From positions 1 to 12,990 of the forward strand of contig LRSL01000094.1 of assembly GCA_001563335.1 (NCBI GenBank): a stretch of 12,990 nt of DNA, written 5' to 3'. The stretch is from Candidatus Thorarchaeota archaeon SMTZ1-45 (GTDB taxonomy: Archaea; Asgardarchaeota; Thorarchaeia; Thorarchaeales; Thorarchaeaceae). Under the pieces are notes generated by a model. The model was not told where the DNA came from. It saw only the letters and a program-made list of their open reading frames with translations, and searched no databases. The position numbers and the translations under genes are program-made. Of the stretch, positions 2,517 through 12,990 are shown piece by piece. Numbering within the stretch: the stretch's first letter is position 1; each line of letters starts with the position of its first letter.

Positions 2517-3620
2517 CTAACTCACTGGTCTCCAGTAGATTCCAAGTTCATCGGCGGTGTTGAAGGCCAGATCCATCTCTTGAGAGTTCACAGGACGGGC
2601 AATATCAGAGAAGCGCTCCTTCTCAGAACGCACACGGTGCTCGGGGCGATACTGTCCCATTATGTTCACCATGCAGTTGGGCATGTTCTCTGAAACCCAC
2701 TTGAGAATTGGGATAGTACAACATTCCAAATGGTTGGGCATGACAAGGTGGCGGATTATGACCTCCCCGGAATTGTAGGCAATCAAGTGGTTCCGTGAAA
2801 CCACATCAAAATACTCCTTGATGCCAGAGAGCCTCTCAGCACACTTGTTGTTTCCATACTTGAAATCAGGAAGCCAGACATCGATTACATCGAAGAGAAG
2901 TTGCATTGTTTCCTCAGAACAGTAAAGATTCGAGTTCCAGAGTTGCGTTACACTTGAGGTCTGATAGACTTGAGAAGCGAGGATAGTGTGAGTGTTTGGA
3001 ATGGGGTCTCCTCCAACATAGTTGATGTTTAGAGCACCTTCTCTGAATAGTGCCTCAGCAATTGTGGCCAACCCCTCCGGTGCTATTGCTCTTCCAGAGT
3101 TTGGATTTGTAGAGATGTCATTGTTCTGGCAAAAGACACAGCCAAAGCAACAAGATGAAAAGAAGATGGTGCCACTGGGAACAAGGGGAGCCTCTTCACC
3201 TGTATGGAGAAATGCTGAAGATACTCTAGAGGCAGACTCAAGTTTGCACCATCCCTTCTCACCACGAGTTCTGTCTGCACCGCATTTCCGTTCACAGAAA
3301 TGACAGTCAGCGAGTATCCTGTGTGCAAGCTCAATCTTCAGGTTCAGAAAGTTTCGCTCAGTAGACGATGTAGGACTAGGAGCTGCATCATTTGAATCAA
3401 CCTTCTTTACAAGCTCTGTGAACTTCTTAGAGTCCTCCTTATGCACTCTCCAGAGCTCCTCCGTTGAGGAGTCCAGAGGTGCATCACACACCTGGGTCTT
3501 TGTCAATAGATACTTTGCAGTTCGCTCTTGGTCGATAATCTTCCGATATCTATAGAGACGGCGAACTACCTCAGGGTCATTCCATGAGCGCTTTGCATCA
3601 GGTCGAATTAATCTCCACAT
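2517..3620 (-). CDS. Radical SAM protein, PflX/COG1313 family (archaeal long form)
   Basis: CxxxCxxC motif (CCFGCVFCQN) preceded by GEEAPLVPSGTIFF. Second Cys cluster CHFCERKC...GWC. Also NINYVGGDP, WNSN, PDFKYGNNKCA, IIRHLVMPNH and NIMGQYRP. Confidence 0.9.
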   Translation of the reverse strand: MWRLIRPDAKRSWNDPEVVRRLYRYRKIIDQERTAKYLLTKTQVCDAPLDSSTEELWRVHKEDSKKFTELVKKVDSNDAAPSPTSSTERNFLNLKIELAHRILADCHFCERKCGADRTRGEKGWCKLESASRVSSAFLHTGEEAPLVPSGTIFFSSCCFGCVFCQNNDISTNPNSGRAIAPEGLATIAEALFREGALNINYVGGDPIPNTHTILASQVYQTSSVTQLWNSNLYCSEETMQLLFDVIDVWLPDFKYGNNKCAERLSGIKEYFDVVSRNHLIAYNSGEVIIRHLVMPNHLECCTIPILKWVSENMPNCMVNIMGQYRPEHRVRSEKERFSDIARPVNSQEMDLAFNTADELGIYWRPVS

Positions 3621-3668: not shown

Positions 3669-4643
3669 TCATATCATTGATAATGTCGAACTTTCCAGAA
3701 GGTGAGCAATTGTGGCAGCCAGAACGATGACACGATGCTTGAGCCAGAAATGTGTGATGTTTTGGTCACTCTCTAAGAGTTTCTTGGATGCAAGGAGGCC
3801 AGACTGAGAAGGAGGAGCTGTGGAAAAAACGCATCGCTCAGATATTATGTCCTCATTGACAAACCAGTCCTTGTACTCTTTCGCATGGTTCGGATTTCTC
3901 TCAGGATGATTGAAGTCGTCAAGCCGAAACCAGTTCAGTGCAAAGACAGCATCAGCATCTTGCAGAGCTCCCTCGAACTTGTTTTCGTCCTCAAACAATA
4001 CATTAGAACACATCGACGTGTCCCGAGCGACCCTTCGTACTCTATTGAGGAACGAGAACTCAGGAGGAGAAATGAGCCGTACATTAGCACCAAAAGCTAG
4101 TGCTGCAATCAATAGACTGTGTGCTGGTGCAGGATTGACAAATGAGTTACCAAAAGCCCATGTCACCACAATTTGCTTTCCTGAAATACTTCCCAGATGA
4201 ACTTCAAGACCTAAGAGAACAGTCAATGCATCCTGCCAAGCATAGACATCATCATGGAGACTTACAAGTGGGACTCCGGATGCTTGAGCAAACTGATTCG
4301 TGAGAACCCTTCCTTCTCCAAAAGTATCACTACTAGAGAATGCTGTTAGCAGAAGGTCCACCGCCTTACTTGACATCCTCACGGAATCAAGCATCGCATC
4401 TGTTGACATAGTTGCGACATTTGGCCATCCCAAGTCGATAATCTTATGATCAAGACGAGCCGCAGCAATATCAGTGACCTGAGCTTCGAGTGGCGATGCT
4501 CCATGAAAGATACGACCGATGACTTTGACTTTTTTGAGAGTTTCATGAATCACTGAAAACCCAGACGCCTCTATACTCTTAGCTACCTGAATGATGCTTT
4601 GAAGCATTGGTCTGCTGGGAAGTACATCGTTTGTCGGAGTCAT
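3669..4643 (-). CDS. Aspartate/ornithine carbamoyltransferase-fold protein (YgeW/OTC-like) with degenerate catalytic motifs
   Basis: Family scaffold is recognisable along the full length (VPLVSLHDDVY, GKQIVVTWAF, FGANVRLISPPEF, ALQDADAVF..NW, YKDW, C-terminal HR helix), but STRT, HPxQ and HxLP are absent. ATG 4643 (324 aa) is preferred over GTG 4670, which abuts the TATA-like box. Confidence 0.8.
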   Translation of the reverse strand: MTPTNDVLPSRPMLQSIIQVAKSIEASGFSVIHETLKKVKVIGRIFHGASPLEAQVTDIAAARLDHKIIDLGWPNVATMSTDAMLDSVRMSSKAVDLLLTAFSSSDTFGEGRVLTNQFAQASGVPLVSLHDDVYAWQDALTVLLGLEVHLGSISGKQIVVTWAFGNSFVNPAPAHSLLIAALAFGANVRLISPPEFSFLNRVRRVARDTSMCSNVLFEDENKFEGALQDADAVFALNWFRLDDFNHPERNPNHAKEYKDWFVNEDIISERCVFSTAPPSQSGLLASKKLLESDQNITHFWLKHRVIVLAATIAHLLESSTLSMI

Positions 4644-4672
4644 CGCTATTCCACAGCGTATAACAGTCACTG

Positions 4673-4687
4673 ATAATATATTTCCTA
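4673..4687 (-). promoter_or_regulatory. Putative BRE + TATA box (TAGGAAA-TATATTAT) in the divergent transcarbamylase-like/purB spacer
   Basis: A purine-rich run is followed by TATATTAT 30-37 nt upstream of ATG 4643. The same AT tract reads TAATATAT on the plus strand upstream of purB. Confidence 0.5.
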
Positions 4688-6158: not shown

Positions 6159-6926
6159 GTGAAGAAACTTTTAGTCACATTGACTCCATCGGAGAGCAAG
6201 AGATTGATTGCAAAGGGGTTACTTGCCCTTGATCTCGTTCAGGAAGCCCTAGAGATTGGCTACCTCTGCATAACTTTGGGAACAACGTCAGGATATCTCG
6301 TTGAAGAGATTCTTGGCGAGTACGATAAGACTCGCCACATAGCTGGGATTATTGTTCCAAAAGGACTCTCAGTCACTGATAGAGAGACCAGAGCATTTGA
6401 TGCCATATTCCATAGGGGAGAATATCTTGAGAACAAGAAGGTTATCGATGTTTTGGACAAGATGGGACCTGATGATGTCATCATAAAGAGTGCAAATGCC
6501 CTTGATGAGAACTATTTGCCTATAGTTCTACTTGCTAGTGACACCGGTGGCACTGTTGGATCGTTCATTGGCACTGCAGCTGCAAAGAACATCAAGGTGA
6601 TTGTACCAGTGGGACTTGAGAAGTCAATACCAGTGGCTTATGAGGAGTTTTGTGGACAGTTTGGAATGGATGATTGGGATTACGCCATTGGAACACCAGT
6701 GGGAGCGATTGCTCTCACCGAGGGTATTGTCTTTTCTGAGATTGAAGCAATAGAGGTGCTCTTTGATGCTGGGGCCATACCTATTTCTGCGGGTGGAGTC
6801 AATGGCGCAGAAGGTTCAATAAGCCTATTCATTGAAGGTGATGATGACGAGATTGCACAGGCTTACGAGTTCTTCAAAGACCTCAAAGGAGAGCCACCAT
6901 TCCCAAAGGTTGATCGAGTCAAATAA
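6159..6926 (+). CDS. Conserved-looking hypothetical soluble alpha/beta protein
   Basis: 255 aa, GTG start with GAGGAG at 6141-6146. Gly-rich motif-like blocks LTPSESKRLIAKG, GTT, KSANALD, GGTVG, PVGLEK and AGGVNGAEGS. Confidence 0.8.
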   Translation: MKKLLVTLTPSESKRLIAKGLLALDLVQEALEIGYLCITLGTTSGYLVEEILGEYDKTRHIAGIIVPKGLSVTDRETRAFDAIFHRGEYLENKKVIDVLDKMGPDDVIIKSANALDENYLPIVLLASDTGGTVGSFIGTAAAKNIKVIVPVGLEKSIPVAYEEFCGQFGMDDWDYAIGTPVGAIALTEGIVFSEIEAIEVLFDAGAIPISAGGVNGAEGSISLFIEGDDDEIAQAYEFFKDLKGEPPFPKVDRVK

Positions 6927-12177: not shown

Positions 12178-12354
12178 AGTCCCACATCGATGTCCATTGC
12201 TAACTCCAAACCGCGCAGTTGGTAGTATTGGGCATCTGGTTCGACGAAAAGTGTGTTCATATATTTTAGTTAGATGTATTCGACCAAAGGCAACAACTTA
12301 AAGTGGCAAGTGATAAAATGAGCGGGTTGAAAATTCAATCGGAGAGACTGCCTA

Positions 12355-12846
12355 TTGAAGAGCTTCCTTGCAATTGACCTCCATAAATGCACTGGCTGTA
12401 GAAACTGTGAGTTGGCCTGTTCTGCTAAAAATGTCAAATCGTTCAATCCAAGAAGGTCGAGAATTCAGATTCTCAAGGACGAACCAAGAAACCTCATGGT
12501 CCCAATGGTTTGTCTTCAGTGTGAGGAGCCACTCTGTGAACAAGATTGTCCAACTGGTGCAATTTCCTATAATGAGAAAGGAACTTTGTTTGTCAATAGT
12601 GATGTGTGTATTGGTTGCATGAATTGCGTGACAGCATGTGTCTACGGAGGAATTGAGATTGATCCAAAGACATTGAAGGCTGTGAAGTGTGATTTGTGCT
12701 GGGGAGACCCTGCATGTATCAAAGCTTGTGATTATGGAGCGATTAGTCTTGTCGAAGCTGGAAAAGAGGGTTACAAAGCAAGAAGAGAGGGTATAGATCT
12801 TGCCTTTCAAACAATTGGGATGACAACTGGGGAGGTGGTTGAGTGA
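12355..12846 (+). CDS. Four-cluster [4Fe-4S] electron-transfer protein (DmsB/HydN/CooF-like), likely small subunit of the adjacent AOR
   Basis: 16 Cys in four groups: CTGCRNCELAC, CLQCEEPLCEQDC, CIGCMNCVTAC, CDLC..PACIKAC. TTG start with GGAG at 12341-12344. Confidence 0.93.
   Translation: MKSFLAIDLHKCTGCRNCELACSAKNVKSFNPRRSRIQILKDEPRNLMVPMVCLQCEEPLCEQDCPTGAISYNEKGTLFVNSDVCIGCMNCVTACVYGGIEIDPKTLKAVKCDLCWGDPACIKACDYGAISLVEAGKEGYKARREGIDLAFQTIGMTTGEVVE
12831..12836 (+). promoter_or_regulatory. Shine-Dalgarno site for the AOR gene
   Basis: GGAGGT 6 nt before GTG 12843. Confidence 0.7.
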
Positions 12847-12990
12847 CATTCCCATACAAAGGATACGCGGGATATTACCTAGACATAGACCTTACAAAAG
12901 GCAAGGTGCACAAGAAAGAGCTGGAAAAAGATTGGGCAAGACTCTACTTGGGTGGCAGTGGAGTTGCTGCAAAGATTTTATGGGAAAGGA
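12843..12990 (+). CDS. aor: Aldehyde:ferredoxin oxidoreductase (AOR/WOR) family protein, N-terminal 49 aa; runs off the window edge
   Basis: Not in the ORF track. Manual translation MTFPYKGYAGYYLDIDLTKGKVHKKELEKDWARLYLGGSGVAAKILWER matches the AOR N-terminus (GYxG..L.IDL......YLGG.G). GTGA overlap with the Fe-S gene stop. Confidence 0.9.
   Translation, partial: MTFPYKGYAGYYLDIDLTKGKVHKKELEKDWARLYLGGSGVAAKILWER

Follow-up and report, generated by a model that had tools for sequence, protein, structure and literature searches.

A full-length transcarbamylase homologue of Thorarchaeota without the characteristic active-site motifs of its superfamily

The window analysed here is a stretch of 12,990 nt from Candidatus Thorarchaeota archaeon SMTZ1-45, the entire contig C94 (LRSL01000094.1) of a 3.54-Mb metagenome-assembled genome (MAG; 119 contigs, 87.7% complete). 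At positions 3669-4643 it carries a gene for a transcarbamylase-like protein (TCL), which a preliminary description, made by a model from the letters of the sequence alone, had presented as an intact homologue lacking the catalytic motifs. The uninterrupted 324-aa open reading frame described there lies where it was placed, and its coding strand is the minus strand: translation of the plus strand across 3669-4643 runs into many stops, and the minus strand holds a single open frame, of 333 aa if it begins at GTG 4670 and of 324 aa if it begins at ATG 4643. Orthologues mostly start with a Met matching ATG 4643. A GGAAA..TTAT element 25-40 nt 5' of this ATG is conserved in 9/9 aligned orthologous upstream regions, with an invariant AA..TTAT core, and because GTG 4670 falls inside it we prefer ATG 4643 as the start. 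This conserved element fits the plausible BRE/TATA proposed earlier, and would act as the promoter of the gene. The main features are as follows.

3669..4643, minus strand: coding sequence of TCL, 324 aa, from ATG 4643 to TGA 3669-3671, recognised by its open frame and full-length AOTCase-like homology
4670..4685, minus strand: BRE/TATA-like element GGAAATATATTATCAG, a putative promoter centred about 34 nt 5' of the ATG and containing GTG 4670

Profile searches place TCL in the transcarbamylase fold. In Pfam only the C-terminal OTCace domain (PF00185) was recovered, marginally (31.8 bits vs a cut-off of 29.4), and OTCace_N (PF02729) was not detected by hmmscan at E<=0.01. NCBIfam ranked the AOTCase model NF003384 first at 67.3 bits, followed by OTCase (41), YgeW (36) and ATCase (22). 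The AOTCase score falls below the equivalog cut-off of 288, which the 15 active reference proteins used here pass (335-398 bits for the four scanned), and the E144/K252 residue pair of AOTCase is also missing; the two YgeW models, NF005538 and TIGR03316, gave 36.3 and 32.5 bits and did not reach their cut-offs of 453 and 500. No enzyme family besides transcarbamylases was matched by TCL in Pfam or NCBIfam. Searching the PDB by phmmer retrieved AOTCase (3KZC/3M4N, E 2e-11) and YgeW (3Q98, E 5e-8), and a profile of the TCL family again scored highest with AOTCase (76 bits), followed by Pyrococcus OTCase (75) and YgeW (64-66). Profile-profile alignment of the family to the 15 AOTCase-like proteins by hhalign gave 99.8% probability and an E-value of 4e-29 over 317 columns, and since it covers residues 2-322 the N-terminal domain is homologous as well. 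The nearest clusters in the ESM Atlas were the YgeW and AOTCase families, both at 0.91, with YgeW on top. TCL is a full-length but very divergent homologue of the knotted AOTCase-like transcarbamylases, in which the two-domain fold signature is kept. Membership of another fold, which would have spoken against the preliminary description, was not indicated by any of these searches.

Residue counts at single positions refer from here on to 30 representatives, one per 50%-identity cluster, and the census of motifs to all 133 collected full-length members. The sequence signatures related to the knot give a mixed picture: the proline-rich loop can be aligned, with W162...P171 invariant, and contains only 1-2 Pro, H178 has become G in 28/30 representatives, and the 120's loop is present and shorter than that of AOTCase. 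To place the family we built a quick maximum-likelihood tree of 82 rows, drawn from 15 of the 30 representatives, those 63 of P0155-P0262 that are 300-400 aa long, and the four canonical paralogues of the same genome; proteins outside that length range and the remaining 15 representatives did not enter it. The sampled TCL members grouped as a single clade (SH-aLRT 100) whose stem measured 1.67 substitutions per site; it was nested within a starred clade of knotted AOTCase-like proteins and stood beside the P0178-type AOTCases (SH-aLRT 80-100). Such a stem makes long-branch artefacts likely in this placement. Profile-profile scores slightly favour instead the type represented by two paralogues in the same genome, L002 and L003 (269 vs 247 for the P0178 type), with which TCL has in common the local motifs DD.Y (ahead of the HPxQ site) and (Y/F)G.G (within the 120's loop), and either type could be the sister group. 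The earlier suggestion that TCL lies closer to a YgeW-like branch than to ArgF or PyrB holds for its affinity to the knotted group, and not for YgeW itself, given the NCBIfam ranking above.

The residues that define transcarbamylase chemistry are gone. According to a 2015 review (PMC4581275), SxRT, the beta4 Arg, HPxQ and HxLP typify every transcarbamylase known, the three motifs being treated there as universal. Two sets of alignments were used to locate the corresponding sites in TCL, one profile-profile to the 15 AOTCase-like proteins and one to the four canonical paralogues of the genome.

4485..4496, minus strand: former SxRT phosphate-binding loop, codons 50-53, S-P-L-E, located by these alignments; variable in the family, with position 53 E/D in 28/30
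4344..4346, minus strand: former beta4 carbamoyl-phosphate Arg (R112 of Xanthomonas AOTCase), codon 100, T; T in 19, A in 6 and V in 3 of 30
4230..4241, minus strand: former HPxQ, codons 135-138, A-W-Q-D, from gapless profile alignments
3810..3821, minus strand: former HxLP, codons 275-278, T-A-P-P; H replaced by T/S in 23/30, L by P in 22/30, last P kept in 27/30
3732..3734, minus strand: equivalent of the ENR Arg (R322 of AOTCase), codon 304, R; R in 22/30 representatives and 123/133 members

These assignments bear out the by-eye reading of the preliminary description. All the strings it quoted are present in the translation: FHGASPLEA (residues 46-54), LLLTA (97-101), AWQDALTV (135-142), TAPP (275-278) and KHR (302-304), together with TWAF, PPEF, NW and YKDW. 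In FHGASPLEA, read as the counterpart of F..xSTRTR, the SxRT(R) segment corresponds to S50-P-L-E53-A in both sets of alignments; the Arg at the end of the I.xR strand, read as LLLTA, is T100; HxLP is T275-A-P-P278; and the C-terminal Arg of ENR, read as KHR, is the retained R304. HPxQ, read as AWQDALTV, falls on A135-W-Q-D138 in the gapless profile alignment and on Y134-A-W-Q137, with a compensating gap, in the pairwise phmmer alternative, and the His is missing in both. A Gln stands at or beside the HPxQ Gln position in 17/30 representatives. Across the family, SxRT, the beta4 Arg, HPxQ or HxLP was found at the aligned sites in 0/133 members.

R304 is the sole carbamoyl-phosphate contact that TCL keeps. 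Six basic pocket residues have disappeared (R51, R53, R111, K249, R295 and R296, P0178 numbering), and the second-substrate pair E144/K252 reads H130/L236 in the window, with E144 changed to R/H/A and K252 to L in the family. The Trp of the 80's loop, which in AOTCase enters the active site of the neighbouring subunit, is kept in 12/30 representatives. Among the 15 active relatives, 50 positions reach at least 90% conservation; the TCL of the window keeps 16 of them, and only eight (D106, W175, S189, G198, P206, W251, W273 and P293) are kept in at least 80% of the representatives; none of these eight is a substrate contact in Table 1 of the same review.

Comparison with relatives whose motifs are intact sharpens this picture. 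AOTCase (N-acetylornithine transcarbamylase of the arginine pathway, ArgF'; NF003384; PDB 3KZC/3KZK, Xanthomonas campestris) is the best NCBIfam and PDB match, aligns over the full length, and shares with TCL the knotted-group tryptophans W162, W238 and W260 and the cis-Pro position of HxLP. Unlike AOTCase, TCL is without S49/R51/T52, R112, H148, Q151 (in the gapless alignment), C294/L295, E144 and K252, as named in the residue list of Table 1 (PMC4581275), and its 80's and 120's loops are shorter. YgeW (NF005538, TIGR03316; PDB 3Q98, 2YFK) is likewise a relative from the knotted group, close in the Atlas and in the PDB profile search; it differs in its length of about 390 aa with extra helices, and in keeping all carbamoyl-phosphate-binding residues according to the same review. 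The four canonical paralogues of the genome are ArgF, PyrB and, encoded on contig C44, the two AOTCase-like proteins L002 and L003, all with intact motifs. L002 and L003, which come from the same organism as TCL and are tied to it by the profile scores and local motifs given above, differ in retaining SLRTR/SVRTR, HPCQ and HCLP/HCGP, and are only 19-21% identical to TCL. Their genes lie about 12 kb apart; one protein scores 288.3 bits against the NF003384 cut-off of 288, the other 252 bits with HCGP for HCLP.

The motif-less form is a family of its own. A word-indexed search returned 113 TCL homologues with identity down to 38%, and an exhaustive profile search gave about 30 full-length cluster representatives at or above 218 bits; the next score was 108 bits, where motif-bearing transcarbamylases begin. 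The family is monophyletic, its divergence reaches 27-38% identity, and all named relatives are Thorarchaeota or Promethearchaeota MAGs. Among 400 genomes of the phylum that were scanned, TCL reached 205 bits or more in the genome of the window and in 65 of 85 further members of the same GTDB family (f1). It did so in 0/314 genomes outside that family, where the best score was 127 bits. One further family genome (G382) holds a TCL fragment at a contig end; counting it, TCL was not found in 19/85. The clade is narrow, being confined to one GTDB family.

Within this family the gene is under purifying selection. The ten closest pairs gave dN/dS values of 0.06-0.22 (dS 0.34-1.36), compared with 0.03-0.13 for neighbouring genes in the same genome pairs; these are pairwise Nei-Gojobori estimates from pairs that are not independent, and only those with dS below about 1.5 were relied on, many others being saturated. 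Reading frames were intact in every copy inspected: two copies flagged as "1 TGA" were followed up as possible pseudogenes and proved intact, with their stops outside the coding sequence. In genus g28, what looked like an in-frame TAG in the AOTCase-like genes was likewise discarded, the case in G033 being the terminal stop within the match and the others being assumed to be alike. A search for longer proteins at E<=1e-10, which is weak evidence, returned no fused forms of TCL. Two outcomes would have pointed to recent decay, namely close relatives with intact STRT/HPxQ and neutral evolution of this copy; the former was seen in none of the close and distant relatives, and the latter is at odds with the dN/dS values and the intact flagged copies. 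Motif loss that is family-wide, purifying selection, the conserved putative promoter and the retained fold agree with the earlier proposal of a repurposed protein rather than a decaying pseudogene. On an operational definition, by which the binding residues are gone and the gene is maintained by selection, TCL would, judged by its sequences, be counted as a pseudoenzyme.

We then asked where in the protein constraint resides. Mean column entropy in TCL is 2.50 in the former carbamoyl-phosphate (N-terminal) domain vs 1.85 in the C-terminal domain, whilst active relatives show 1.74 vs 1.57; dN/dS by domain follows the same direction, with 0.08-0.41 for the N-terminal and 0.05-0.18 for the C-terminal domain, the former being higher in 10 of the 11 pairs, which are not independent. 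[quoted passage not shown] The last of these has been remodelled into a sequence particular to the family.

3894..3935, minus strand: family-specific conserved loop replacing the 240's/SMG loop, codons 237-250, NWFRLDDFNHPERN; invariant or nearly so in a 27-sequence alignment

This loop reads NW.RLDDFNHPERN in most members. Among the representatives N237, W238 and E248 are conserved in at least 90%, R249 in 87% and N250 in 80%, and the loop degenerates in the deepest members (e.g. FNDIEGN, SPIGDRLSLEK). Several old active-site positions carry new fixed residues: T52 has become E/D in 28/30, H93 E/D in 24/30 and N297 D/E in 25/30, to which are added the change of H178 to G mentioned above and that of H290 to T/S (23/30). 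We read these replacements as probably directed rather than the product of drift. TCL proteins are also more acidic than their active relatives, with a median isoelectric point of 5.2 vs 6.2 and a median net charge of -11 vs -4. Only G111, W162, P171, P193, F196, W238, A254 and W260 are strictly invariant in the 30 representatives; none is polar, and the knotted group is the source of at least W162, P193, W238 and W260. The conserved polar sites all have exceptions, which are scattered over 22 different sequences of the 30.

TCL is divergently oriented from purB or, where purB is absent, from a gene encoding a 255-aa protein (unk255) that is followed by an ABC transporter. On its other side, on the same strand, lies a gene for a radical SAM protein.

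2517..3620, minus strand: radical SAM protein (CxxxCxxC, PflA/NrdG-like), 48 bp downstream of TCL; Pfam Radical_SAM and Fer4_12

Twenty-four related loci continue beyond the 3' end of TCL. In 18 of them the radical SAM gene comes next in the same orientation; one of the others has an inverted fragment and five carry unrelated genes. The gap of 48 bp in the window widens to about 55-340 bp elsewhere. From this position alone, TCL is possibly co-transcribed with the PflA-like gene in most lineages. The radical SAM protein itself has the canonical CxxxCxxC and an N-terminal Cys-rich stretch (CHFCERKC...C), weak matches of NrdG/PflA type, and 57-92% identity across the family; no PDB sequence relative was found at E<=0.01. 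The product of unk255 (window 6159-6926, plus strand) is 64-88% identical across Thorarchaeota, has no Pfam or NCBIfam match and finds "hypothetical protein" clusters, archaeal and bacterial, as its Atlas neighbours (0.95); the gene always stands between purB or TCL and the ABC transporter. At the far end of the window, 12352-12855 holds two nearly fully overlapping open reading frames on opposite strands; the 163-aa frame on the plus strand repeats the ferredoxin-type spacing CxxCxxCxxxC and is therefore probably the genuine gene. Positional orthology of TCL with AOTCase-like genes of other Asgard families was considered and rejected: in the eight loci inspected the motifs are canonical, and the radical SAM, PurB and unk255 neighbours are missing from each.

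Seventeen family genomes are without both TCL and the radical SAM gene, and in 5/5 of those tested purB and unk255 were not found either, so that the absences of TCL there are probably those of a missing block, reflecting gaps in assembly or binning. Five MAGs (G339, G340, G346, G364 and G332 of f1), rated 91-93% complete, yielded matches to none of TCL, the radical SAM gene, unk255 and purB. The syntenic block seems to escape assembly or binning, and in the window's own genome it is a stand-alone 13-kb contig. A functional link between TCL and the radical SAM gene by co-loss was therefore set aside: the shared absence is best explained by the block being missing, the radical SAM gene occurs without TCL in two genomes, and the link is positional only.

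Our favoured explanation, to which we give even credence, is that TCL is a repurposed, non-catalytic descendant of a knotted AOTCase-like transcarbamylase that binds through a face of its C-terminal domain and has been fixed in one Thorarchaeota family. Such a protein would no longer transfer carbamoyl groups and would act by binding instead. Its constrained surface would be the C-terminal-domain side of the old cleft, made up of what remains of the proline-rich loop (residues 162-176), the strand-turn segment 131-140 and the former 240's loop in its remodelled form, and the old cleft, remodelled and neutral to acidic, may itself also bind a ligand or a protein partner. As the cationic pocket has turned neutral to acidic, the ligand is predicted to be cationic or neutral, or the partner to be a protein. 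What inclines us to a non-catalytic role is that, within what is a single archaeal family, not one polar residue is strictly invariant. Of the roles first put forward for TCL, those of a subunit in a hetero-oligomer, a sensor or a new enzyme, any may apply, and the data lean to the non-catalytic side.

Several observations weigh against this reading. TCL is the fastest-evolving gene of its neighbourhood (38-80% identity vs 63-92% for the neighbours), so constraint on it is only moderate. Two fairly complete genomes (G319, 97%; G324, 91%) keep the radical SAM and NTP-transferase genes and TCL was not found in them, so some lineages can dispense with TCL and the link to the radical SAM gene is weak; and with synteny extending over all 13 kb across the family, adjacency carries little information. 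A number of polar residues are nearly invariant (D131 29/30, R201 29/30, N237 29/30, E248 27/30 and D259 27/30), the scattered exceptions at polar sites could be metagenomic sequencing errors, and the highly conserved loop NW.RLDDFNHPERN could, together with these residues, form a new catalytic site.

The last point leads to the idea that the remodelled cleft catalyses some other reaction, independent of carbamoyl phosphate, with D131/D132, R201, N237, E248-R249-N250 and D259 as binding or catalytic residues. We regard such a new enzyme as unlikely, yet as the strongest competitor. Beyond the polar residues and the loop, it would account for the new residues fixed at former active-site positions and for a C-terminal-domain omega as low as that of enzyme-coding neighbours, and the long stem fits a burst of neofunctionalisation. 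It sits less well with the lack of any strictly invariant polar residue, H175 being N in a whole subclade and single substitutions including R201T, N237P, E248A (twice) and D131N; nor does it explain why the loop degenerates in the deepest members and why only transcarbamylase families are matched. TCL might instead enter mixed trimers with an active knotted paralogue of the L002 or L003 type and tune or regulate its activity, in the manner of a prozyme. Two such paralogues with intact motifs are present in the genome, the profile scores and the DD.Y and (Y/F)G.G motifs tie TCL to their group, and active sites at subunit interfaces are established for transcarbamylases, according to the review cited above (PMC4581275). 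Still, the paralogues are encoded on another contig, unlinked to TCL, their identity to it is low, and the 80's-loop Trp is kept in a minority of representatives. The N-terminal domain of transcarbamylases makes the trimer contacts, and in TCL it is precisely this domain that is least conserved; we consider a mixed trimer improbable.

Readings at the two extremes fare worse. A residual transcarbamylase, still dependent on carbamoyl phosphate and binding it by unconventional residues, could appeal to the widely kept R304 and to the Gln at or next to the HPxQ position, but all four features that the review regards as characteristic of the superfamily are missing, the phosphate-binding Thr has become acidic in nearly all representatives and the six basic pocket residues are gone, and we judge this very improbable. 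That TCL is a decaying or neutrally drifting remnant is hardly credible and already contradicted: its rapid evolution and its apparent absence from 19 family genomes would be expected of one, whereas the low dN/dS, the intact frames in all inspected copies, the persistence of a monophyletic family across such divergence, and the concurrent absence of the housekeeping gene purB and of unk255 from the tested genomes without TCL argue the opposite.

TCL may not be alone. Dead homologues retained as structural partners have a precedent in this area of metabolism, according to the review (PMC4581275): inactive dihydroorotases (DHOases) partner bacterial ATCases, and fungal CAD-like proteins contain a DHOase-like domain that is inactive; there the dead member is a DHOase and not a transcarbamylase. 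Another parallel is the lineage of P0169, P0263 and P0264, P0271 being noted alongside: these are knotted-type homologues without SxRT and HPxQ, P0169 having 337 aa and relatives at 45-46% identity. Unlike TCL, they branch elsewhere in the tree beside motif-bearing proteins, both Pfam domains still score, and at least one member is bacterial, P0264 being a "hypothetical protein" of a candidate division KSB1 bacterium; the next relatives carry STRTR/HPLQ/HALP. By sequence and branching we take the P0169 group to be a second motif-less transcarbamylase lineage of independent origin. Separately, five knotted AOTCase-like singletons (P0196, P0197, P0230, P0232 and P0234) have partly lost SxRT, the beta4 Arg, HPxQ or HxLP, and could be other degenerate lineages, pseudogenes or sequencing errors.

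Full-text literature searching, within the portions of papers that it covered, found no characterised inactive member of the transcarbamylase family, in keeping with the preliminary description, which knew of none; it likewise found nothing on carbamoyltransferases of Thorarchaeota. A bolder version of our reading, which we rate at slightly short of even, is that the transcarbamylase superfamily has in TCL its first conserved clade of pseudoenzymes: a dead AOTCase specific to Thorarchaeota, in which the carbamoyl-phosphate pocket would be inverted in charge and the second-substrate domain turned into a binding module with a sensing or regulatory role, possibly towards the neighbouring PflA-like radical SAM enzyme, and which together with the P0169 group would make dead transcarbamylases a recurrent phenomenon.

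TCL proteins carry the JGI label "ornithine carbamoyltransferase", so that metabolic reconstructions of Thorarchaeota may count an enzyme of arginine or pyrimidine metabolism that TCL almost certainly is not. A selected, family-wide lineage without the three motifs and the beta4 Arg extends the known scope of the transcarbamylase fold, and if TCL is indeed a clade of dead AOTCases with the P0169 group beside it, dead transcarbamylases would be a recurrent and overlooked theme, labelled "ornithine carbamoyltransferase" by current pipelines.

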